DNA of 64,000 bases from contig JBHELY010000011.1 of assembly GCA_046262815.1 (NCBI GenBank), positions 1,783 to 65,782 on the forward strand, read 5' to 3'. The notes beneath the pieces were generated by a model, which saw nothing but the letters and a program-made list of their open reading frames with translations, was not told the DNA's origin and searched no databases. Every line of letters starts with the position of its first letter. Position 1 is the first letter of the stretch. Positions 4,887-42,176 of this stretch are shown piece by piece. The translations under genes and the position numbers were made by a program. The stretch is from Chthoniobacterales bacterium. GTDB taxonomy: Bacteria > Verrucomicrobiota > Verrucomicrobiia > Chthoniobacterales > UBA10450.

Positions 4887-5438
4887 ATGTTTCTGCGAGT
4901 CCTGCTCATTCTCACGATTTGTTCGTCGCTGGTTCGTGGCGCGGGAAGTCCGTCGCCGTCACCGTCGCCAAGCGCGCCCCCGTCGCCCACGGAAGCTTCC
5001 GTTAAACAACTGCTCGAAGTCGCCCAGGCCCATAAGCTCGTCGACTCCGTGATGAAGCAGATGGACATTCTGATGTTGCAAGCGATCGCGCAGGCGACCA
5101 AAGGTCAACCGGTCCCGGAGAAGGTCCAAAACGATATCGACCAGCGCCGAAGGGAAATGAATTCGCTCATGAAAGAGTTGCTCGATTGGAAAAAACTCGA
5201 GCCGATCTATGTGCGCATTTACCAGAAGAGTTTCACCCAGGCCGAGGTCGATGGGATGATCGCGTTTTACAAAACACCGGCCGGCCAGGCGATGATCGGC
5301 AAAATGCCCGCGGTAATGCAAAACTCGATCGACGAGATGCAACAGTTGATGGGACCGGTGATGGAGAAAATTCAGCGAACGCAGCAGGATGTGGCCGCCG
5401 GGATGAAGACCGAACCCAAACCGAAAAGCGGTAAGTGA
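4887..5438 (+). CDS. DUF2059-domain exported protein
   Basis: 183 aa. Signal peptide and Pro/Ser linker, then YQKSFTQAEVDGMIAFYKTPAGQAMIGKMP. Confidence 0.7.
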   Translation: MFLRVLLILTICSSLVRGAGSPSPSPSPSAPPSPTEASVKQLLEVAQAHKLVDSVMKQMDILMLQAIAQATKGQPVPEKVQNDIDQRRREMNSLMKELLDWKKLEPIYVRIYQKSFTQAEVDGMIAFYKTPAGQAMIGKMPAVMQNSIDEMQQLMGPVMEKIQRTQQDVAAGMKTEPKPKSGK

Positions 5439-5445
5439 GGGGCGC

Positions 5446-5559
5446 TCAACCTTTGTTCCCGAACCAGATCGCGAACGTCCACGCGAGAGCGGCTGCGAAT
5501 CCTATGAATGAGACCGCGACCAGAACGAGAATCGCGACTGCCTCGAATAAGATCAGCAT
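5446..5559 (-). CDS. candidate 37-aa hydrophobic peptide
   Basis: Reverse ATG 5559 to TGA 5446 gives MLILFEAVAILVLVAVSFIGFAAALAWTFAIWFGNKG. No homology evidence. Confidence 0.2.
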   Translation of the reverse strand: MLILFEAVAILVLVAVSFIGFAAALAWTFAIWFGNKG

Positions 5560-5730
5560 AAACCCAAAGAGAGAACGCGAACGCGCCGTCTCTCAGATTT
5601 AACAACTCCGCGCCATCGCCAAAGTCGCGGGGGGTTGAGCGTTAATTGCGCAAGGATGACCGCGCGGAGGCGTCGCCGGTGACAACAAGCTTTCGCTTCT
5701 TTCTGAACTTCGGCAGACTTCCGACCGCGA

Positions 5731-8431: not shown

Positions 8432-11400
8432 TTATTTCGCCGGCGGAGTCGGATTCCGGTTCGGATACGGCGGCGGCCCAGGCGGCAACGAATAACCCTT
8501 CGTCTTCATGTCCTTCTGGATTTCTTCGATCGCGCGATCGAGCTGCTGGTCTTCGCCGTGAAATTCCTTCGACGGATCGTTATCGACGACGATGTCGGGA
8601 TCGACGCCGTGACCTTCAATGACCCATTCCTTGCCGTCCTTCGAAAAGGGAGCGAACTCCGGCCGGAATAACTGGCCGCCGTCCGTGAGCGGAAGCGGAT
8701 TACGAATTCCGACCACGCCGCCCCAGGTCCGTTTGCCTATCAATTTACCAAGTCCCAGTGCCTTGAAGCGATACGGGAAGATATCGCCATCCGACGCCGA
8801 AAACTCGTCACATAACGCGACCATTGGCCCCACGAACGTCAGTGGCGGATTCGTTTGCGGCGTACCGTTACGCGCGATCTCCACCATCACGAGCGCGCGC
8901 CGGAGACGATCGATCACCAGCGGTGAAACGAAGCCGCCGCCGTTGCCGCGCACGTCCACGATCAGACCTTTCTTGCGGATCTGCGGGAAGTATTGCTTGG
9001 TGAATTCGTTTAAGCCCGGCTGTCCCATGTCGGGAATATGAATGTAACCAACCTGGCCGTTGGTCTTCTTGGTAACTTCATCCACGTTCTTCTGGACCCA
9101 GGCGCGATAGTAAAGCGGCGACTCGTCCGAGACGGGAACGACGGTGATGTCGCGCGCGCCATCGTCCGCCGGTTTCGAGTTGACCCGGAGAATGACTTGT
9201 TTGTCGGCGGTGCCGATAAGCGCGTCGTAGATATTGGTCAGGGTGCTAACCGGCGTGCCGTTAACCGCCAGAATGTAATCGCCCGCTTTCACATTCACGC
9301 CGACCGCGGTAAGCGGCGAACGCCCGTGCTTGTCCCAGTTCTCGCCCGGCAGGATCTTCTCAATCTTGTAAGCCTTACTCGCCGGATCGCGCGATAGCTC
9401 CGCGCCAAGTAGTCCTAGCTTGATGCGCGGCGTCTCGGGACGTTCGCCGCCGGCGACGTAAGCATGCCCGTTGTTCAACTCGCCGATTAACTCACCGACG
9501 AGATAGGTAAGATCGTTGCGATGATTCACGAATGGAACCAGCGCGCCATACTTGTCGCGCATCGCTTTCCAGTCCACGCCGTTCATGTTCGGCGCGTAGA
9601 AGAAATCGCGCATATGCCGCCACGATTCGTTGTAGATCTGGGTCCACTCCGCATGGCGATCGAGCTTCATGTCGAGCCCGGAGAGCTTTAGCCGAAAATC
9701 TTTCCCGGCCTTATCGTCCTTGATCTCGATCTTGTCCTTCGGCAGGTCGATCATTGCGTATTCCTTGCCGATCTTTACCAGCATCTTCTTCCCGTCGTAG
9801 GTGATCTCGTAGTTACTTACATCGCCCAGGACGGTTTCCTTGCGGTCGTCAATGCTGTAGGAGCAGAGATGCCAGCGACGGTTGTCCGGGCCTCCATCAT
9901 CGTCGTCATCGCCACGGTCGTCCGCCACGGTGCGGCGCATGTAGAACACGCGATCGTTCACCAGTCGCAGATTCCGGTAGTTAGCAGAAGGAATGTCCAG
10001 CGCGATAAGACGGTCGTGAATGCCGTCCAGGTCCACCTTCACTGTTACTGGCTTCTTGGCACCCGGCTCTTTGTCCTTACCATCTTTGTCGTCCTTCTTG
10101 GTATCTTCGCCGGGTTTCTTATCGGGCTTAGCTTTGTCTTTGTCAGCTTCCTTACCCTTGTCCTTGTCGTCCGGCTTGTCTTTCTCCTTCTCCTTCTTCT
10201 TACCTACTTCATCGCTCCGCGGCCCGAGTGGGTTTTCCGTCTCCTTCGATAACGTCACCAGGTACACCCGCTCCAGGTCGCGATAGATGTTGTTGAAATC
10301 GGTTTGATCGAAGAGGGGCTTGAAATCCCGGCTCGAGGTCATCATGAGATATTTGCCGTCATCGCTGAACGTCGCGCTATCCGCCGAATACCATTCGTCG
10401 GTTACCGGCGTTTCCTTCTTGTTCGCGAGCGAAAAGAGGTGAACGCGGTCGCCGCCGTTCTCTTCCTGCCGCACCCAGGCGATCCAGTTACTGTCCGGCG
10501 ACCAATCATAGCTGCCGATCTCGGCTTCCTTGCTTTGGTCCACCTGCGTGATGGCCTTGCTCGCGACATCGATGTAACGCAACCGCTGCAAGCGATCGCT
10601 CCACATGAGCTTCTTGCTATCAGGCGACCAGGCCGCGCCGTAGTAGTAGGTGTCGGCGTTGCTGGTTAATTGCGTGGGCTCGCCTTTGCCATCCTGCGAA
10701 CGAACGTACAACTCGTTCTCACCCGTCACGTCCGAGTTATAGGCAATCCATTTCCCGTCGGGCGACCAAACCGCATCGCGCTCATGCGCGTTCGAGGTCT
10801 TCGTTAAATTCCGCGGGGTCCCGTCTTTTCCTGGGACCGAATACAAATCGCCGCGAGCGACGACGATCACGCGCTGGCCATCCGGCGCCGAAGTGACGGA
10901 TTCAATGTGCTTCGAGGCATCCACCATCGCCGAGCGACCGGATGCGAAATCTTCCTTGATATCGATCGGCACCACGGCCGATTTCCCGCTCGCCAGATCG
11001 TAGCGCCAGATGTAACCAGCCTGCTCGAACACGACCGCGTCTTTCCCGATCGACGGGAACTTGATGTCGTAATCCTTGAAAGTCGTGAGCTGCTTGGTGT
11101 CCTTGCCGGTGAGATCGGCCGAGAACAAATTCATCCGCCCGTCGCGATCGGAAATGAAATAGATCCGGTTATCCGGGCCCCACATCGGGCAGATGTCCTG
11201 CGACGGATCGTTCGTCAGGTTCGTGGTCTGGCCGGTTTTGAAATCGAACATCCAGACGTCGTCGGCCATGCCGCCGCGATAATGTTTCCAGGTGCGGAAC
11301 TCGCGGAAGACGCGGTTATAAACCATCTTCGAATCGTCCGGCGAAAACGAAGCGAACCCGCCGCGCGGCACCGGCAATTGCTGCGGCAGATCGCCGTCCA

Positions 11401-11884
11401 TGCTCGCGGTGTAAAGCTCGCCGATGAAGGAATTGAACATCCGCATGCGACTTCGGAAAACCACCAGCGGCTTCGTGTTCTCCCAGGTCATCACGATGTT
11501 GTTCGGGCCCATCCGGTCCGAGATGTCGTCGCGGCCGACTGTCGTTGTCGTCGTGATCCGCTTCGGCGCGCCGCCTTCGCCGGGCATGACGTAGACTTCC
11601 GTGTTGCCGTCGTACTGCGAGGTGAACGCGATCTGTTTTCCGTCGGGCGAAAAGTGCGGGAACGAAGTGTAACCCGGACCACTCGTTAGGCGGCGGGCGA
11701 CGCCGCCCTCCTTCGCGACGGTGTAAAGCTCGCCGGCGTAACAGAAGACGATTTGCGAGCCGTTCGTGGTCGGGAAACGGAGAAGGCGCGTGGTGTTTGG
11801 TAAGTTTTGGGCTGAAGCAGGGCGGTCGAGCACGAGCGCGATTACGAGCGCGATTACGAGGCGAAGAAGTGAAGTCGGACGCAT
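8432..11884 (-). CDS. tricorn protease homologue (S41 peptidase with beta-propellers and PDZ)
   Basis: 1150 aa. Signal peptide, TolB-like SPDGK propeller repeats, PDZ and S41 core. Carries a Lys/Asp-rich insert at aa 556-612. Confidence 0.85.
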   Translation of the reverse strand: MRPTSLLRLVIALVIALVLDRPASAQNLPNTTRLLRFPTTNGSQIVFCYAGELYTVAKEGGVARRLTSGPGYTSFPHFSPDGKQIAFTSQYDGNTEVYVMPGEGGAPKRITTTTTVGRDDISDRMGPNNIVMTWENTKPLVVFRSRMRMFNSFIGELYTASMDGDLPQQLPVPRGGFASFSPDDSKMVYNRVFREFRTWKHYRGGMADDVWMFDFKTGQTTNLTNDPSQDICPMWGPDNRIYFISDRDGRMNLFSADLTGKDTKQLTTFKDYDIKFPSIGKDAVVFEQAGYIWRYDLASGKSAVVPIDIKEDFASGRSAMVDASKHIESVTSAPDGQRVIVVARGDLYSVPGKDGTPRNLTKTSNAHERDAVWSPDGKWIAYNSDVTGENELYVRSQDGKGEPTQLTSNADTYYYGAAWSPDSKKLMWSDRLQRLRYIDVASKAITQVDQSKEAEIGSYDWSPDSNWIAWVRQEENGGDRVHLFSLANKKETPVTDEWYSADSATFSDDGKYLMMTSSRDFKPLFDQTDFNNIYRDLERVYLVTLSKETENPLGPRSDEVGKKKEKEKDKPDDKDKGKEADKDKAKPDKKPGEDTKKDDKDGKDKEPGAKKPVTVKVDLDGIHDRLIALDIPSANYRNLRLVNDRVFYMRRTVADDRGDDDDDGGPDNRRWHLCSYSIDDRKETVLGDVSNYEITYDGKKMLVKIGKEYAMIDLPKDKIEIKDDKAGKDFRLKLSGLDMKLDRHAEWTQIYNESWRHMRDFFYAPNMNGVDWKAMRDKYGALVPFVNHRNDLTYLVGELIGELNNGHAYVAGGERPETPRIKLGLLGAELSRDPASKAYKIEKILPGENWDKHGRSPLTAVGVNVKAGDYILAVNGTPVSTLTNIYDALIGTADKQVILRVNSKPADDGARDITVVPVSDESPLYYRAWVQKNVDEVTKKTNGQVGYIHIPDMGQPGLNEFTKQYFPQIRKKGLIVDVRGNGGGFVSPLVIDRLRRALVMVEIARNGTPQTNPPLTFVGPMVALCDEFSASDGDIFPYRFKALGLGKLIGKRTWGGVVGIRNPLPLTDGGQLFRPEFAPFSKDGKEWVIEGHGVDPDIVVDNDPSKEFHGEDQQLDRAIEEIQKDMKTKGYSLPPGPPPYPNRNPTPPAK

Positions 11885-11977
11885 AAGTGGAATAGAGAAG
11901 TGGCGATCAAGCTGGCGTGAGGCCGCCGGCCTGACAACTGCGTTAGTTTGTTTGGACTGCGGAGCCGCGGGGCCGCG

Positions 11978-12571
11978 CTACGCCGTTATCCGGCGGAACA
12001 TAATCGCGGCTACGACGCCCACCAAGAAAAATCCGACGAACTGGATAAACATATAGGCAGCGGTGTAGTTCGTCGGGAAGCCATACCAGTTCCAATACGA
12101 GACGTTGGTCGAGATCGCGGTCATGAGTCCCGCGGCGGTGACAAAACCGACCCGGCCGCCGAAGCTGACCAGGCGGGTTTGGGCCAGCAGCCACACGACC
12201 AAGAGCGCCTCGCACAGCTCGGTGATGAACTCGATGGTCAGATATTTTCCCATGTTCATCGGACGCGACCCAGCCGGATGATAGAGAATAAGCCCGGACG
12301 GATGCTTCTCGAGTTTTTCCGGGTATTTTCCCATCGCTGCGCTCTGTTGCGCGTGCGTCGCATCGGGCGGAAGACCCATGGTCGGATAAATGTAGAGGCC
12401 TTCCTTGTTTTTCACGGTCGATTTCAGCTCTGAGAGAAGCGCTGCATCGTCTGTCGTGTTTTGGACGCCGGCTTCGCCGATGGGCAGCGCCATGTGCGCG
12501 ATTGCAGTCCAGGCAAACATGGCGATGGCGCCAAGAAGGCCGGCGAGAAGAATTCGAGTTCCAGTATTCAT
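11978..12571 (-). CDS. membrane protein, hypothetical
   Basis: ORF 11978..12622 trimmed to ATG 12571, which is preceded by AGGAGG. N-terminal TM plus a C-terminal multi-TM block. Confidence 0.6.
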   Translation of the reverse strand: MNTGTRILLAGLLGAIAMFAWTAIAHMALPIGEAGVQNTTDDAALLSELKSTVKNKEGLYIYPTMGLPPDATHAQQSAAMGKYPEKLEKHPSGLILYHPAGSRPMNMGKYLTIEFITELCEALLVVWLLAQTRLVSFGGRVGFVTAAGLMTAISTNVSYWNWYGFPTNYTAAYMFIQFVGFFLVGVVAAIMFRRITA

Positions 12572-37095: not shown

Positions 37096-37105
37096 TGCGG
37101 CCGGC

Positions 37106-37384
37106 CTAACGACCCGCCAAAAAATAGAGAAGCGTCAGTAGGACAAGAACGATTGCGGTGATCCACCAGACCGGGCTGATCCCGGCCGGCTTCGGCGAGC
37201 GGCCGAATTCTCTCCGCGTGAATTCATCGTAATCGAATTCCTCAGGCAGATCGACGCCGTCATAGCTTTCCGCGTCCTCGCGCCAACCGGAATTATGGTC
37301 CGCGCCGCATTCCGGGCAGGCTAGGGCGCCGCGCGGCACATCCTCGCCACAAACCGGACAGATCACGGGAGCTTGCCGTTTCAT
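37106..37384 (-). CDS. zinc-ribbon membrane protein
   Basis: 92 aa. CPVCG...CPECG and a C-terminal TM helix. Confidence 0.6.
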   Translation of the reverse strand: MKRQAPVICPVCGEDVPRGALACPECGADHNSGWREDAESYDGVDLPEEFDYDEFTRREFGRSPKPAGISPVWWITAIVLVLLTLLYFLAGR

Positions 37385-37453
37385 TGCGCGATGATAATCG
37401 CGAAAATCTTGAATCCAAACCGTCGTCCTGCTCCGTCCATTCTAGAGAACGCC

Positions 37454-37843
37454 ATGGAAACCTCATACCCACAACCGCCGCCAACCCCCGTCAACGTCAC
37501 TGCCGTCGCGAACGTGCGCACCTGGTCCGCATTCATCCACGCCAGCGCTCTGCTCGGCGTCTTGCTCCATTTCCCTGGCCACCTGCTCCCGCCGCTCATC
37601 CTCTGGCTAATCAAACGCGACGACGCCCCCGAGCTCGACGCCCACGGCAAGGAAGCGGTCAACTTCCAGATCTCGATGCTGATCTACAACGTCGTTGCCG
37701 CGATCTTCTGCCTCGTCCTGGTCGGCTTCGCTTTCCTCGGCATCCTCTGGATCCTGAACACCATCTTCGTCATCATCGCCGCCATCCAGGCCAGCGACGG
37801 CAAATTCTACCGCTACCCCATGACGATCCGGTTCATCCAATAA
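37454..37843 (+). CDS. DUF4870-domain membrane protein
   Basis: Trimmed to ATG 37454. LILWLIKRDD...HGKEAVNFQIS pattern. Confidence 0.7.
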   Translation: METSYPQPPPTPVNVTAVANVRTWSAFIHASALLGVLLHFPGHLLPPLILWLIKRDDAPELDAHGKEAVNFQISMLIYNVVAAIFCLVLVGFAFLGILWILNTIFVIIAAIQASDGKFYRYPMTIRFIQ

Positions 37844-37845
37844 GG

Positions 37846-37869
37846 TGTAGAGGCGGGTGTCCCACCCGC
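37846..37869 (+). repeat. GTAG-headed REP-like hairpin
   Basis: TGTAG-ag-GCGGGTG-tcc-CACCCGC, 2 nt after the DUF4870 stop codon. Confidence 0.45.
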
Positions 37870-37876
37870 AGACTTA

Positions 37877-38162
37877 CCCGCGCAGGGAAGATTCTTCCGC
37901 GCGTCGCCCTCATTCCCGCGCGCGTGGCGACTCTTCCGGCGTGTGTGGCGACGCTCCCACGCGCGTGGCGACTCTCGGCGCGTGCTCTGGAACCGCGTAT
38001 TTACCGGCACGAAACCGTTCCAGCGCACGCCCGGACAATTCCAGCGCGACGGCAAGGTTCTCCACGCATGTCGCGATAACTCCCACGCGCGCACCAAGGG
38101 TTCCCACGCTCGCAGCAATCATCCCCACGCACGCGGGAATCGTTCCCACGCGCAGCCCTTCT
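37877..38162. repeat. about 14 degenerate 20-21 bp tandem repeats (consensus about CCCACGCGCGnnnnnnnnnTT)
   Basis: Best-preserved units: 38082 cccacgcgcgcaccaagggtt, 38103 cccacgctcgcagcaatcat, 38123 ccccacgcacgcgggaatcgtt, 37915 cccgcgcgcgtggcgactctt, 37956 cccacgcgcgtggcgactct. Confidence 0.7.
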
Positions 38163-38319
38163 CCCGTTAAATCACGTTCCTGCTACGTTTTCCGACCTCC
38201 GGGCCTGCTCTCTGGCCTCCGAACTTTCTCCTTTAGCCTTTCGACCTTCTACTTTCCGTTTGCCGCTACCCGATCGACCATCCGGTTTATTCAATAACGG
38301 AGTCCGAATACCGACGGGT

Positions 38320-38538
38320 TTAGCGGAATTTTTCAATATCGATTCCGCTTCCTTCGATGATGCTCTTGAGTGTGCCGATAGGAATCGGCTTGCTGGCGTG
38401 AACCGCCACGACCACCTGGCGACCGTTAGCATGTCGCCACTTCTGATGGCTGCCACGCTGACCTGCGAGCGCGAATCCGTGGCGTTGTAGAATCTTGGTG
38501 ACGTCTCTCGCAGTGCGAACCGGAAATCGTCGGCTCAC
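38320..38538 (-). CDS. hicA: type II toxin HicA
   Basis: 72 aa. GSHQKWRH...IPIGTLKSII is the HicA pattern. 4-nt overlap with hicB. Confidence 0.85.
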   Translation of the reverse strand: MSRRFPVRTARDVTKILQRHGFALAGQRGSHQKWRHANGRQVVVAVHASKPIPIGTLKSIIEGSGIDIEKFR

Positions 38539-38738
38539 GGAACCGCGACTTCCAAAATCCTTGCCCCGTCGGCAAGATGCACGTCCGCCGGTTCAAACCA
38601 AAGCGCCAGCGCCTCCTTCGCGTTCGAAACCGCTTCTTCCTCTGTGTCGCCTGCGCTCGCGCACCCGGGCAATTCAGGAAACACAGCGGACCATCGCTTT
38701 GTTTGCCGATCAAACTCCACTATGACGCGCAACTTCAT
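38535..38738 (-). CDS. hicB: type II antitoxin HicB (UPF0150-type, no DNA-binding extension)
   Basis: 67 aa. FPELPGCASAGDTEEEAVSNAKEAL. Confidence 0.8.
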   Translation of the reverse strand: MKLRVIVEFDRQTKRWSAVFPELPGCASAGDTEEEAVSNAKEALALWFEPADVHLADGARILEVAVP

Positions 38739-38793
38739 GGCGGTGACTCTATCGCAAAATCAGTTGAAATGCACGATACTCCAACGCGCAGTG

Positions 38794-39519
38794 TCAGTCG
38801 GAGGTTGTAAGTTTGCGCTTCCAGAGATTTAACGTTCCAATCAGCAATTCGAAGTCCTCCTCCGACATCGGATACGGAATTCGCGCGACCATCTGACCGG
38901 TTAAAGGAACCGATACTTCAGGATGTGACGGTTGAGTTGTTAACGCTGCGCTTGTCGTCCTATCAAAAGAATCCGGTTCGGGCCGCACATGAGTTATCGA
39001 AGCGGTCTTCGCAGGCGACGAGTGCAGAGGCTGCGTCTCGGCACCGTCGCCTTTGGCATAAATTCTAGCGAATTCAACGGTCGACTTGTACACTGCGGAA
39101 GCGCGTCGCGCACCTTCTGGGGTAAACCCAATCTGAACCAGATGATTGGCTAACACGTCCTCAGAGCAATCGTGATATCCCCCTTCAAAGATCTGAGAAA
39201 ATATTTTCGGACGGAGCGCAGCTTCCTTTTTCGCCTCAGCTTCCTGCGAATCATTGAGCGGATGAATGAGCCGAATGGCCAAAGGCGACACTGAGAGACC
39301 GTTTCGATCTGAATCGACTAGTCCATAATGTTTCAACGCGGCCAATGTTCCAAGCGCGGCGCCGTTGAGGCTCGAGTATCCCAGTGGTCCCAATGCGACC
39401 TCCGCCCGAATGTTTGCTCGCCCTGCTTTCACATGCAGTTTTCGAACAAGATCGACAGCCTCATTGAGCGCGATCCGTGGGTATTTGGGACTTCGTTCCT
39501 TCTTAATGTCTTCTTCCAT
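38794..39519 (-). CDS. orphan hypothetical protein upstream of hicBA
   Basis: ORF 38794..39594; Met at 39519 preferred (MEEDIKKERSPKYPRIALNEAVDLV). AT-richer than its surroundings. No family recognised with confidence. Confidence 0.55.
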   Translation of the reverse strand: MEEDIKKERSPKYPRIALNEAVDLVRKLHVKAGRANIRAEVALGPLGYSSLNGAALGTLAALKHYGLVDSDRNGLSVSPLAIRLIHPLNDSQEAEAKKEAALRPKIFSQIFEGGYHDCSEDVLANHLVQIGFTPEGARRASAVYKSTVEFARIYAKGDGAETQPLHSSPAKTASITHVRPEPDSFDRTTSAALTTQPSHPEVSVPLTGQMVARIPYPMSEEDFELLIGTLNLWKRKLTTSD

Positions 39520-39744
39520 GGCGATAGACTTATCTCCTTCCTCACAATATTGCAACATTAATCTCCTTGACCGCAGTCTAACCCAGGAGACCAATACTAA
39601 TCTTCGGTTTATCCAGATTTTGACGCCAGGACCCGACAGTATTAACGCGACCGCACCTTTTATACGCTCCCCAAGCGCCTACATAGACAGTCATCTTGAT
39701 ATATCGCGTCTCGTTATCGCCATTCTAGTGCAGCCGTGAACATA

Positions 39745-40419
39745 ACCTGAACAGCATAGCCGGCGACAGCCGTGCCGCGCGATCCTGGCGCTCGTGACGA
39801 TGGAATAGTCGAGCAGTTCGGTTTTCGAACAGAAAAGGGCGACTTTTGAGCAACGGGTGCCGTTTCGGCGGACAGAGTTTTTGTGAGGATGCGTTTCGAT
39901 CCAATGGCCACCGAGATGTCATAATCGCGGAATCGCGACATCGTGGAGCTTTAATTGGATGTACATCTCCATTTGTCCGCTTAATAGTCGGTGTCAACGC
40001 CAAATATCGAGAAAACTTGTACTGTGTAGCATCATGAGGTGCGCGATACCTGAACAGCGTAGCCGGCGACAGTCGTGCCGCGCGATCCTGGCGCTCGTGA
40101 CGATGGAATAGTCGAGCAGTTCGGTTTGTCGAAGAGAAAAGGACAACTTTTGAGCAACGGGTGCCGTGGCAATAGACGGAGTTTTCCATGGCAGATCTGT
40201 TTCGATCGAACCGACCGCCAGAACAGGCCAATCGCGACGGCATGCGGGGGCAGGGCTGGAAATGAGTGAACATCGCCATTATGTCGATTAAGGGTTTGTT
40301 CAACGCGTAAATTCGAGAAAAATGTTGTTGCGTAGCATTTGGAAGTGCGCGATACCTGAACAGCGCAGCCGGCGACAGCCGTGCCGCGCGATCCTGGCGC
40401 TCGTGAGAGCGCCAGGATC
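39745..40419. repeat. three tandem units (periods 303 and 306 bp) with a highly conserved ~120-nt core
   Basis: ACCTGAACAGC starts at 39745, 40048 and 40354. Cores 39745-39863 and 40048-40167 differ at about 6 positions. The third copy shares 53 nt and then forms the hairpin 40390-40419. Confidence 0.85.
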
Positions 40420-40426
40420 CGAAAGA

Positions 40427-40516
40427 CACCCGTGTAGCTCAACTGGATAGAGCACCGCATAGGCGACGGGAAGCCGATGATGCGGGGATGGCTAGGTTCG
40501 AATCCCCCACGGGTGG
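40427..40516 (+). ncRNA. non-canonical tRNA-like element (possible tRNA-derived RNA or pseudogene)
   Basis: Acceptor CACCCGTG/CACGGGTG and canonical D-arm GTAGCTCAACTGGATAGAGCA. The anticodon-arm stem CCGCAT/ATGCGG has a 19-nt loop. GGTTCGAATCC box present, but the T-stem GGGGA/TCCCC encloses 14 nt. Confidence 0.45.
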
Positions 40517-40562
40517 TCTGAATTTATCCCTGATTGCCCGAGCCGCAAGGGCCGATCTGGTC

Positions 40563-40606
40563 GCCTAACGACTAGACGCGCACTCACTTAAAAGCCGTCG
40601 TTAGGC
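40563..40606. terminator. inverted pair GCCTAACGAC ... GTCGTTAGGC at the 3' end of the POT gene
   Basis: 10-bp perfect arms with a 24-nt spacer. The right arm contains the POT stop codon. No U-tract. Confidence 0.45.
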
Positions 40607-42001
40607 CTTCGCTCCGACCTCGAGCTGATGGCTGGCGACGAATTTGAAGATCACGAAGCAGAGGCCTGAGCCGAGAGCGAAGGCGCCGTGGAGGAGCCAG
40701 AAGTTGGTGGTGGGCCATTTCTCGAGGAAGCCGCCAACCCAGCCGACCATGGTATTGGCGGCGAAGAAGGCCAGATAATACAGGCCGATGATGGTGGCGT
40801 TGATCGCTTTCGGCGCGTACTTCGCGAATAACGCGAGACTGATCGGCAACAGATGCGCGAATGCGATGCTGTTGATGAAGTGGAACGCGACCGGCCAGAA
40901 GAGTCCGATTTTCTGCCCGGCGGTCTGCGTGGCCGCGGCCATGAAAAGACAGAGGGTGCCGGCAATCGAAAAAACGGAGCCGATGATGAGCTTCGTGACT
41001 TCGTCGGGCTCGCGCCGACGCTTCCCGTACCAACGATAGAAAATCGCGACAAGCGCTAGGAAGGTGACGCTGACGATGGCGTCGAGAGTAACGAGCCAGG
41101 TGGTCGGCAGTTTTTTGCCCATGAAAACGAGGTCGAACTGCTGGTCGCCCCAAACCAGGTAGGCGTTAAAGATCTGGTTGTTCGGCACGATCGCGACGGC
41201 AAGCACGGGGATAAGAAGGACGAGCGCGATGATGGCGCGCCAGTCGCGCCCGGTGAGCTTCGCGCGCGGCGCACTCGTGACGACGGCGAGGCTCGGGTCG
41301 TTGTCGCTTGCGCGAAGATATTTTTGTCCCCGCAAATAAATGCCGATGGCGAGAAGCATGCCGACGCCGGCAGCGGCGAAGCCGTAATGCCATCCGACTT
41401 TTTCGCCTAACGAGCCGACAATAAGCGGTGAGATGATGACGCCGGCGTTGATGCCGAGATAGAAAATCTGGAAGGCGTCGGCGCGGCGGAGGTCTTCGGG
41501 TTTGTAAAGCGAGCCGACCTGGCTGGCGATGTTGCCCTTGAACATGCCGCATCCGAGTACGAGGCAAAGGAGCGCAAATAGAAACGCAGTCTCGAATGCC
41601 ATCAGGAAATGGCCGGCGGCCATGGTGAACGCGCCGAGCAGAACGGTGCGGCGCCGGCCGAGAACGCGATCGGCAAGGAAACCGCCGAAGATTGGTGTGA
41701 GATAAACGGCGGCGGTGTACGTGCCGAAGATGGCGGAAGCTAGCGGTTGCCCACCGAGTCCGCTATAAAATGGCAGTTGGCGGAACGCGTCGAAGATCGC
41801 GACCCGCTCGATGCGTCCGGGCAGGAGAAGATACTTCACCATGTAAAGGACAAGCAGCGATTGCATGCCGTAGTAGGAAAAGCGTTCCCACGCTTCGGTG
41901 AACGCGAGATACCAGAGCCCGCGCGGGTGTCCGAGGAAACCGGGGGTGTGTTCTTCGCCGGTCAACGGCGCGGCGTCATCAGGCTCGGCGGTGGCGGTCA
42001 T
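40601..42001 (-). CDS. POT/PTR2 family proton-dependent oligopeptide transporter
   Basis: 466 aa. GHPRGLWYLAFTEAWERFSYYGMQSLLVLYM is the PTR2 signature. Confidence 0.9.
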   Translation of the reverse strand: MTATAEPDDAAPLTGEEHTPGFLGHPRGLWYLAFTEAWERFSYYGMQSLLVLYMVKYLLLPGRIERVAIFDAFRQLPFYSGLGGQPLASAIFGTYTAAVYLTPIFGGFLADRVLGRRRTVLLGAFTMAAGHFLMAFETAFLFALLCLVLGCGMFKGNIASQVGSLYKPEDLRRADAFQIFYLGINAGVIISPLIVGSLGEKVGWHYGFAAAGVGMLLAIGIYLRGQKYLRASDNDPSLAVVTSAPRAKLTGRDWRAIIALVLLIPVLAVAIVPNNQIFNAYLVWGDQQFDLVFMGKKLPTTWLVTLDAIVSVTFLALVAIFYRWYGKRRREPDEVTKLIIGSVFSIAGTLCLFMAAATQTAGQKIGLFWPVAFHFINSIAFAHLLPISLALFAKYAPKAINATIIGLYYLAFFAANTMVGWVGGFLEKWPTTNFWLLHGAFALGSGLCFVIFKFVASHQLEVGAKA

Positions 42002-42176
42002 GCGGCGGGCAGATTAGCGAGACGAATTGAATCAGGAAAACAGGAAAATAGGAAAGAACAGAACAATCTGGAAGCCAGGAAACCAAGAAGAAGGGAAAAG
42101 AAAATGTAATCGCATCGCGCTCTTCGTTCCTGGATTCCTGTTTTCCAAATTAGTTCCTGTTTTCTTCTTTCCTGAT
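42002..42176 (-). promoter_or_regulatory. AT-rich 175-nt spacer/leader with CAGGAA repeats and 11-bp terminal inverted repeats
   Basis: CAGGAA at 42033, 42041 and 42076. TTCCTG at 42127, 42135, 42154 and 42169. GAATCAGGAAA (42029-42039) pairs with TTTCCTGATTC (42168-42178). Confidence 0.4.

Follow-up and report, generated by a model that had tools for sequence, protein, structure and literature searches.

Does a strongly conserved core inside a short tandem repeat mark a functional element, or can such a core persist in decaying DNA without one? This question is raised by a 64,000-nt stretch of DNA (hereafter the window) from a metagenome-assembled genome of a Chthoniobacterales bacterium (Verrucomicrobiota; contig JBHELY010000011.1, assembly GCA_046262815.1). 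In this window three head-to-tail units of ~305 bp lie in a non-coding region between a gene for a hypothetical 241-aa protein and a transfer RNA (tRNA)-like element. The array and the contrast between its cores and spacers are genuine, and the array is a tandem repeat, private to its lineage, with a strikingly conserved core. This core probably represents a structured RNA or a control element that is private to the island carrying it. What is new here is a duplicated, lineage-private non-coding module, not a new kind of system, and its importance is modest.

Layout of the Repeat Array

The array occupies positions 39745-40406, with a period of 306 and 2.2 copies (Tandem Repeats Finder, score 789). 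The 25-nt start motif ACCTGAACAGCRYAGCCGGCGACAG occurs exactly three times in the window (39745, 40048, and 40354; expected 0), which reproduces the three unit starts listed in a first-pass annotation made from the sequence alone; the unit-to-unit periods are 303 and 306, and 225 nt of unique sequence separate the array from the 241-aa gene. The conserved core of unit 1 comprises 119 nt on the plus strand (39745-39863; nhmmer E = 1e-46) and aligns with the core of unit 2 (40048-40167) at 114 out of 120 identical columns (95%), the differences being five substitutions and one 1-nt indel, so that the first-pass estimate of about six differences holds. According to the alignment and nhmmer, the conserved part of unit 2 begins slightly earlier, at 40039 (40039-40167, plus strand), with the 9-nt sequence GTGCGCGAT directly upstream of the core start. 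The same 9 nt precede unit 3 at 40345, and this last unit (40345-40406, plus strand; nhmmer E = 2.8e-15) contains only the first 53 nt of the core. Over these 53 nt the three units are pairwise 96% identical and each carries one private substitution.

The spacers that follow the cores (~185 nt per unit; 39864-40038 in unit 1 and 40168-40344 in unit 2, aligned on the plus strand) are identical in 134 out of 202 columns (66%), compared with 51.6 +/- 1.6% for shuffled sequence. They are therefore homologous, yet ~7 times more diverged than the cores, and their divergence corresponds to ~0.45 substitutions per site. The contrast between core and spacer described in the first-pass annotation is thus real, but its range of 55-65% for the spacers was slightly too low. 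Short blocks are kept within the spacers (GAGTTTT, GTTTCGATC, TCGAGAAAA, and GTAGCAT) between very diverged stretches. In both full units GTAGCAT lies 15 nt upstream of the core and GAGTTTT 11-13 nt downstream, a placement that, judged from the letters, would fit a weak promoter and a U-rich end.

Predicted Fold of the Core and the Hairpin of Unit 3

Folding of the core as a plus-strand RNA predicts a long-range helix in each full unit. In unit 1, GGCGCTCGT (39787-39795) pairs with ACGGGTGCC (39853-39861) at pair probabilities of 0.91-1.0 on the plus strand and <=0.04 on the minus strand, and the counterpart in unit 2 (40090-40098 with 40157-40165) reaches 0.84-0.96 on the plus strand and 0 on the minus strand. 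The helix strands, GGCGCUCGU and ACGGGUGCC, are present in both full units and form nine pairs; because two of these are G-U pairs, the helix has a probability of about zero on the minus strand. When the 5' strand was held fixed and the downstream sequence was shuffled, a helix of this kind arose in only 3 out of 300 shuffles, for unit 1 and unit 2 alike. The 57 nt enclosed by the helix form three mini-hairpins, which results in a predicted four-way junction in the shape of a cloverleaf and accounts for the cloverleaf impression recorded in the first-pass annotation. The three small hairpins named there are present, with the qualification that in unit 2 the change of CGAAC to CGAAG breaks the outer pair of the second hairpin.

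The positions of the core differences were compared with this fold. Hairpin loops account for three of them and the unpaired 5' region for two (position 13 marks unit 3 only); one change converts a G-C into a G-U pair and only one disrupts a terminal pair, in a structure that was itself predicted from the same two copies. The earlier statement that four of the six core differences fall in loops is correct, but as evidence it is weak (rough binomial p ~0.08) and biased since the structure was predicted from the same sequences.

Unit 3 displays a second form of this pairing. The unit stops at 40406, and after the spacing GTGA an exact 13-nt reverse complement of the preceding 13 nt closes a perfect 13-bp inverted repeat with a GTGA (GNRA-type) loop (40390-40402 and 40407-40419, plus strand; inverted-repeat search and folding), with no T-run on either strand. 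A 53-nt unit followed by this hairpin just before the tRNA-like element is what had been described for 40390-40419. The left arm of the unit 3 hairpin has the sequence that serves units 1 and 2 as the 5' strand of their long helix. The distant partner of this strand in units 1 and 2 (GGGUGCCG-GG) differs from the right arm of unit 3 (GAGCGCCAGG) by three transitions, each of which replaces a Watson-Crick pair by a wobble pair, a correspondence that was read directly and that is not significant alone. MAFFT left this right arm and the distant partner unaligned, and the correspondence between arm and partner therefore rests on direct reading and on the pair probabilities.

A 90-nt pseudo-tRNA (40427-40516, plus strand) begins seven bases after the hairpin. 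It is called tRNA-Pro(agg) by ARAGORN and scores 32.6 bits with the Rfam tRNA model (gathering score 29), and in a permissive cmscan of 39400-40700 (E <= 10) the tRNA model matched 40428-40515 only. A canonical D-arm, a TTCGAAT loop, and an 8-bp acceptor stem with both acceptor strands are kept. The anticodon loop has 20 nt in place of six model positions, and the T-stem is imperfect (one insertion and one deletion). A functional tRNA has a 7-nt anticodon loop, a regular T-stem, and a score well above threshold; none of these was found at 40427-40516, which also went unreported in the whole-window Rfam scan at gathering thresholds. The 90-nt "tRNA-Pro" should consequently not be annotated as a functional tRNA. 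No second copy of either tRNA half was found in the window with up to three mismatches allowed.

What the Core Is Not

The core matches no RNA family. Rfam 15 at gathering thresholds gave 0 matches in the window, and a permissive local scan gave only chance-level matches (flg-Rhizobiales on the hairpin with 16.7 of 55 bits, and a plant miRNA model), in line with the first-pass statement that the core was not recognized as any known RNA family. The core also carries no terminal inverted repeats, and the only inverted repeats within 39500-40650 are the unit 3 hairpin and one at 40563-40606. The absence of terminal inverted repeats, and of dispersed copies in the collections searched, led to the rejection of the end of an insertion sequence (IS) or a miniature inverted-repeat transposable element. 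An integron attC site was rejected as well: the core starts with ACCTGAAC and ends with GGGTGCCGT, these ends are not inverted repeats, and the RYYYAAC...GTTRRRY motif is absent. Clustered regularly interspaced short palindromic repeats (CRISPR) were considered and dropped, as was a type III toxin-antitoxin (TA) locus, on account of unit size, orientation, copy number, and a neighboring protein without a match to a toxin family. An attL/attR junction at a tRNA gene was rejected because there is no direct repeat of a tRNA part in the window, no integrase in the insert that contains the array, and no tRNA gene at this site in relatives.

Two further explanations assign the units to known kinds of genes. 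A protein-coding repeat is suggested by a 234-aa open reading frame (ORF) on the minus strand (39725-40429) that spans the whole array and stays open through all units, both periods being divisible by three. The ORF exists only because the periods of 303 and 306 are multiples of three: the 1-nt indel within the core shifts its frame while the DNA is conserved on both sides (KRHPLLKSRPFLFE compared with GTRCSKVVLFSST), which puts the conserved flanking DNA into different frames in different units. The product is rich in Arg, Ser, Cys, and His, has no Pfam match, and has no homologue among 5.8 billion proteins, a collection from which the ORF itself is apparently absent. The coding repeat is therefore dismissed as effectively refuted, and the first-pass judgment that the ORFs crossing the repeats are not protein-like is confirmed. 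The second explanation, that the units are decayed tandem copies of a tRNA-like gene with its leader and that units 1 and 2 have highly derived tRNA pseudogenes as their cores, had been raised in the first-pass annotation, and on the present data it is very unlikely. The predicted cloverleaf with a closing stem and three hairpins, the words TGGAATAG..GAGCA and ACGGGTG that recall a D-arm and a 3' acceptor strand, and the tRNA-like pieces that occupy this slot in related loci (see below) speak for it. Yet the tRNA model (RF00005) is silent on the cores even at E <= 10, ARAGORN calls a single gene only, and Smith-Waterman alignments of the two cores with the tRNA-like element score 23 and 17, compared with shuffle means of ~21 +/- 4 (equalled by 153/500 and 453/500 shuffles). 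The rest of the unit shows no similarity to the tRNA-like element or to either flank, and the single 7-mer shared by the 120-nt core and the 90-nt element, ACGGGTG, appears to be roughly at chance level. Furthermore, the 5-nt "anticodon" and "T" loops and the closing stem of 9-12 bp do not fit the dimensions of a tRNA, and pseudogenes would not be expected to remain 95% identical amid decaying surroundings.

Searches for Further Copies of the Core

The search of genomes and metagenomes proposed in the first-pass annotation was conducted with exact 20-mers and returned no homologue. The 20-mer CGCGATCCTGGCGCTCGTGA gave 44 single matches in 185,579 species genomes, none of which extends past 37 nt and all of which are attributable to chance. 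A second 20-mer, GGAATAGTCGAGCAGTTCGG, gave 18 matches in metagenome contigs, all inside unrelated coding genes; its reverse complement encodes P-E-L-L-D-Y-S. Three patterns gave 0 matches in viral contigs, blastn gave 0 matches against phage and plasmid collections, and nhmmer with the core and with the full unit, run against all loci that were fetched, found only the three copies in the window. Complementary or repeated unit words elsewhere in the window were at chance level. The absence of the core elsewhere is weak evidence because exact-word scans are insensitive and the source genome lies outside the genome collection.

The Insert and Its Chromosomal Site

The array is part of an insert of ~2.7 kb (approximately 37876-40560), an island remnant located between a DUF4870 gene and a POT peptide-transporter gene (466 aa, 40601-42001, minus strand). 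Close relatives were retrieved by means of the POT transporter (85-87% identity at the DNA level). The window aligns to one of them (L070) at 37101-37844 and 40610-42002 with 79-86% identity and nothing between aligns; the alignment to a second relative (L069) reaches 37875. The right boundary of the insert lies within 40517-40600 because the POT protein is intact to its C-terminus. A comparison of this site (window 37845-40609, L069 9402-12751, L070 1955-2022, and L071 9402 onward) shows that the gap between the DUF4870 and POT genes measures 68 nt in L070 and ~2.7 kb in the window, where it matches nothing in the relatives, and contains a gene for an SNF2-family helicase in L069 and nicotinamide mononucleotide-transporter genes in a third relative. 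The different cargo indicates that the site is a variable hot spot in this Chthoniobacterales lineage. No tRNA was found at the site in L069-L071.

The G+C content is 0.52-0.56 in the insert and ~0.59 elsewhere. From left to right the insert contains a non-coding stretch of short repeats, hicA, hicB, the 241-aa gene on the minus strand, the 225 nt of unique sequence, the array, the hairpin, and the pseudo-tRNA. The hicA toxin gene (38320-38538, minus strand; Pfam HicA_toxin E = 4.5e-18) and the hicB antitoxin gene (38535-38738, minus strand; Pfam HicB_lk_antitox E = 1.9e-11) are located directly downstream of the 241-aa gene. Pfam and other gene scans found no integrase or replication gene in the insert.

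The Neighboring Gene Family and Its tRNA- and tmRNA-Like Pieces

The 241-aa gene (38794-39519, minus strand) is divergent from the array, and an alternative TTG start at 39594 would extend its product to 266 aa. The product is identical to NCBI ABR611_04465 of a Chthoniobacterales (Verrucomicrobiota) metagenome-assembled genome and has no match in Pfam, PHROGs, NCBIfam, PADLOC, or the sequences of the PDB. A confident AlphaFold2 model (predicted local distance difference test score of 83.8) predicts a winged-helix-like N-terminal domain, for which Foldseek returned only weak MarR/GntR-type winged-helix matches, all with E > 0.03. A profile search gave 6,461 cluster representatives at 50% identity, which makes this a large, unnamed family. 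It was not found in IMG/VR or in phages, and a single distant match lies on a Tistrella megaplasmid with no tRNA-like piece nearby.

The DNA upstream of the homologous gene was read in seven independent relatives (L046 with its duplicate L047, L050, L045, L072, L048, L076/L077, and Tistrella). A tRNA match of 38.2 bits was found in L046 (and its duplicate L047), and a 74-nt tRNA-like element in L050 (2463-2536, minus strand; 37.8 bits), which ARAGORN calls tRNA-Stop with the anticodon UUA. L045 (5561-5652, minus strand) and L072 (1323-1415, minus strand) contain pieces of 92-93 nt that resemble transfer-messenger RNA (tmRNA): the 5' end of a tmRNA (GGGG.CGGUUCC...) is followed at once by the T-arm and the 3' acceptor strand, and the middle part that encodes the tag is missing. 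The alanine identity elements G3:U70 and A73 are kept in the pieces of L045, L072, and L050, and the acceptor stems of L045 and L072 differ by a compensatory change of G5:C to A5:U. From their sequences, these three pieces could be either odd relics of attachment sites or real mimics of the tRNA domain. In L046, L050, L045, and L072 the piece is divergent from the gene, the starts of gene and piece are 205-350 nt apart, and a strong hairpin precedes the piece, by 11-20 nt in L046 and L072 and by ~110 nt in L045 and L050. These hairpins differ in sequence and are terminator-like, with an A-run before and/or a T-run after them. No tRNA- or tmRNA-like piece was found upstream in L048 (where only 362 nt are available), in L076/L077 (where an IS1595 transposase lies there), or at the distant Tistrella homologue.

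Overall, a tRNA- or tmRNA-like piece is located upstream of and divergent from the gene in five of the eight independent loci, the window included, which is far above the expectation from the density of tRNA genes. In the window 908 nt separate the gene start from the tRNA-like element, which exceeds the distance in the related loci by about two units (≈610 nt) and indicates that the array fills the non-coding slot of a recurrent module and has enlarged it. The recurrent pairing of an unnamed protein family with tRNA and tmRNA mimics is a more intriguing lead than the array itself.

Other genes near the homologues were recorded as well. An IS1595-family transposase lies directly upstream of the homologous gene in L076/L077. 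In L046, a 90-aa ORF (5383-5655) after the tRNA-like piece resembles, by eye, a C-terminal transposase fragment, and the element at 10062-12084 encodes a rolling-circle Rep-like protein (weak Pfam match) and RadC. These transposase and Rep neighbors indicate that the gene family lives in mobile DNA.

Interpretation of the Conserved Core

The reading preferred here, tentatively, is that the units are tandem copies of a structured leader or small-RNA module of the island, encoded on the plus strand and kept alike by selection. On this view the non-coding "leader" of a small island acquired by horizontal transfer would have been amplified locally, in tandem, to give the array. In the related islands a winged-helix-like gene faces away from a strong hairpin followed by a tRNA- or tmRNA-like piece; here the stretch just upstream of the hairpin, 36 nt at the 5' side together with the hairpin's own 5' strand, would have been copied to give the present three copies. 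The last copy would retain the simple arrangement, in which the pseudo-tRNA comes after a 13-bp stem capped by a GUGA loop. In units 1 and 2 the 5' strand would pair instead with a partner 57 nt further on, giving a plus-strand RNA of ~120 nt in the shape of a cloverleaf. The cores may thus be transcribed from the plus strand as small RNAs, or as leader or processing domains, that belong to the island, and purifying selection, possibly together with gene conversion, would keep them alike while the spacers drift. This RNA module is favored because the strand-specific helix is found in all three units in its two forms, because of the placement of the changes, and because the repeats persist although prone to deletion. 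Direct repeats with near-identical cores of 120 nt are readily lost by recombination, and the persistence of the cores next to spacers diverged by ~0.45 substitutions per site suggests a benefit in having several copies.

Several observations weigh against this RNA module. The folding energies of the cores are no better than those of shuffled sequences (z = +0.18 and -0.60), and a consensus scan of the units found neither a sigma-70-type promoter nor a canonical intrinsic terminator, with the reservation that verrucomicrobial promoter rules may differ. The searches of genomes, metagenomes, viruses, phages, plasmids, and fetched loci yielded no core homologue, and nothing of the core is seen in the closest related locus (L048, protein 61% identical, 362 nt upstream). 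An ancestral DNA palindrome could have left the helix behind, which would then not be a selected RNA structure, and the whole case consists of 2.2 copies in one metagenome-assembled genome.

Most of these observations fit equally a neutral tandem duplication with concerted evolution, an explanation that is possible but on the unlikely side. An old triplication would be decaying while its functionless core is homogenized by RecA-dependent gene conversion, and once the flanks had diverged, conversion would be confined to the core that was still similar. With 2.2 copies in one genome and no orthologue found, such self-reinforcing conversion gives the same picture of core and spacer. The negative promoter and terminator scan, the folding z-scores near 0, the missing homologues (also upstream of the homologous gene in L048), and the appearance of the island as a degraded remnant (2.7 kb in which neither an integrase nor a replication gene was found) are all in accord with it. 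Neutral decay nevertheless needs at least two conversion events with a near-identical 5' boundary in three units, and it leaves unexplained why the strand that opens the hairpin in unit 3 has a strand-specific partner in units 1 and 2. Unless they are kept for a reason, such direct repeats tend toward deletion, and the spacers hold kept blocks amid diverged stretches, as constrained non-coding DNA does. A role at the DNA level is unlikely. The core and the 30-bp palindrome would then be operators for the winged-helix-like protein, arm-type sites of an integrase, or leftovers of tandem insertions at one attachment site. The array does lie directly upstream of a gene with a predicted winged-helix product, and a perfect palindrome of 13+4+13 is what a dimer operator classically looks like. 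A tRNA-derived piece closes the module, as at island junctions (PMC9897764), the tRNA and tmRNA types differ among the related loci, as relics of attachment sites would, and tandem insertion of related elements alone yields identical sites with diverged neighbors. Against such a role, 120 nt far exceed the size of an operator, units 1 and 2 carry only one half of the palindrome, and their pairing needs G-U pairs, which do not exist in DNA. No integrase was found in or beside the insert, the relatives have no tRNA gene at the site, and two independent remnants of exactly the same length and order are improbable; the hairpins of the related loci differ in sequence and look like terminators.

The plus-strand RNA module may also be part of something larger. 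The 241-aa family and the adjacent tRNA or tmRNA mimic might form a functional two-part module on mobile islands, with the cores as amplified and highly derived RNA partners, for example decoys for factors that bind tRNA or tmRNA or regulators of the protein, but this extension is quite improbable. Should the cores prove to be real RNAs, no small structured RNA of a mobile island would have been described before them in the Chthoniobacterales, which are dominant and barely studied soil bacteria, and they would point to a recurrent pairing of a winged-helix-like protein with elements that resemble tRNA or tmRNA. Should they be no more than a tract of gene conversion in an island that is decaying, the array still serves as a caution that a contrast between core and spacer in a tandem repeat is, by itself, no evidence of selection.

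Comparison with Known Systems

Tandemly duplicated genes for bacterial small RNAs (sRNAs) include PrrF1/PrrF2 in Pseudomonas, LhrC1-4 in Listeria, and AbcR1/AbcR2 in the Rhizobiales. Such a tandem sRNA gene pair or array would be the closest analogue in its working, and membership in this class is not claimed. The array shares with them head-to-tail copies a few hundred bases apart, a near-identical body of ~100-150 nt with diverged spacers, a non-coding location, and a strand-specific predicted structure. Known tandem sRNA genes show clear promoters, Rho-independent terminators, and conservation across species, and several have Rfam entries, whereas no promoter, terminator, orthologue, or Rfam match was found here, and the last copy of the array is truncated and fused to a hairpin and a pseudo-tRNA.

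A second point of reference are the ends of islands. Fragments of tRNA and tmRNA genes at the ends of integrated mobile elements were reportedly described by Williams in 2002. Mis-called tRNAs of 90 bp and tRNA fragments at island ends have been described (van der Gulik et al. 2023, PMC9897764), and the element at 40427-40516 resembles these as a low-scoring 90-nt "tRNA" with an insertion, located at the edge of an insert that is missing from relatives; the type of tRNA or tmRNA likewise varies among the related loci. At classical junctions the fragment is a 3' portion of the target gene and is duplicated at the far end of the island, whereas the pseudo-tRNA has both acceptor strands and no second copy in the window, the relatives have no tRNA gene at the site, and no integrase was found. 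Nor does the array of 305-bp units consist of tRNA sequence.

The ToxI/ToxN type III TA system resembles the locus in its tandem non-coding repeats, separated by a hairpin from a protein gene on mobile DNA. ToxI consists of equal units of 34-36 nt upstream of the toxin gene and on its strand, in contrast to the divergent 305-nt units in 2.2 copies found here, and the neighboring protein matches no toxin family in PADLOC or Pfam. The attC arrays of chromosomal integrons (Vibrio cholerae repeats) share conserved elements of ~120 nt at intervals, variable DNA between them, and a TA pair nearby. The spacers of the present array are, unlike those of attC arrays, homologous to each other and free of genes. 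An attC site is furthermore an imperfect palindrome of 55-140 nt with RYYYAAC...GTTRRRY ends, features that the core does not have, and no integron integrase is present.

Minor Features in and near the Insert

The non-coding left part of the insert (37900-38160) is dense in short repeats. A 21-nt unit, TCCCACGCGCGCAGCAATCGT, is present in 3.5 copies at 38081-38153 (Tandem Repeats Finder), and GCG(C/T)GTGGCGAC in three copies at 37925-37975; judged from their sequences, these repeats look like iterons or protein-binding sites. Near the opposite end, a perfect 10-bp inverted repeat with a 24-nt loop (GCCTAACGAC and GTCGTTAGGC; 40563-40606) overlaps the stop codon of the POT gene with its right arm. 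The words GCCTAAC and GTTAGGC within it equal the consensus core sites of integron attC, and the structure is too short for an attC site. Since GCC-TAA is the Ala-stop of the POT gene, the inverted repeat is probably the 3' hairpin of the POT mRNA.

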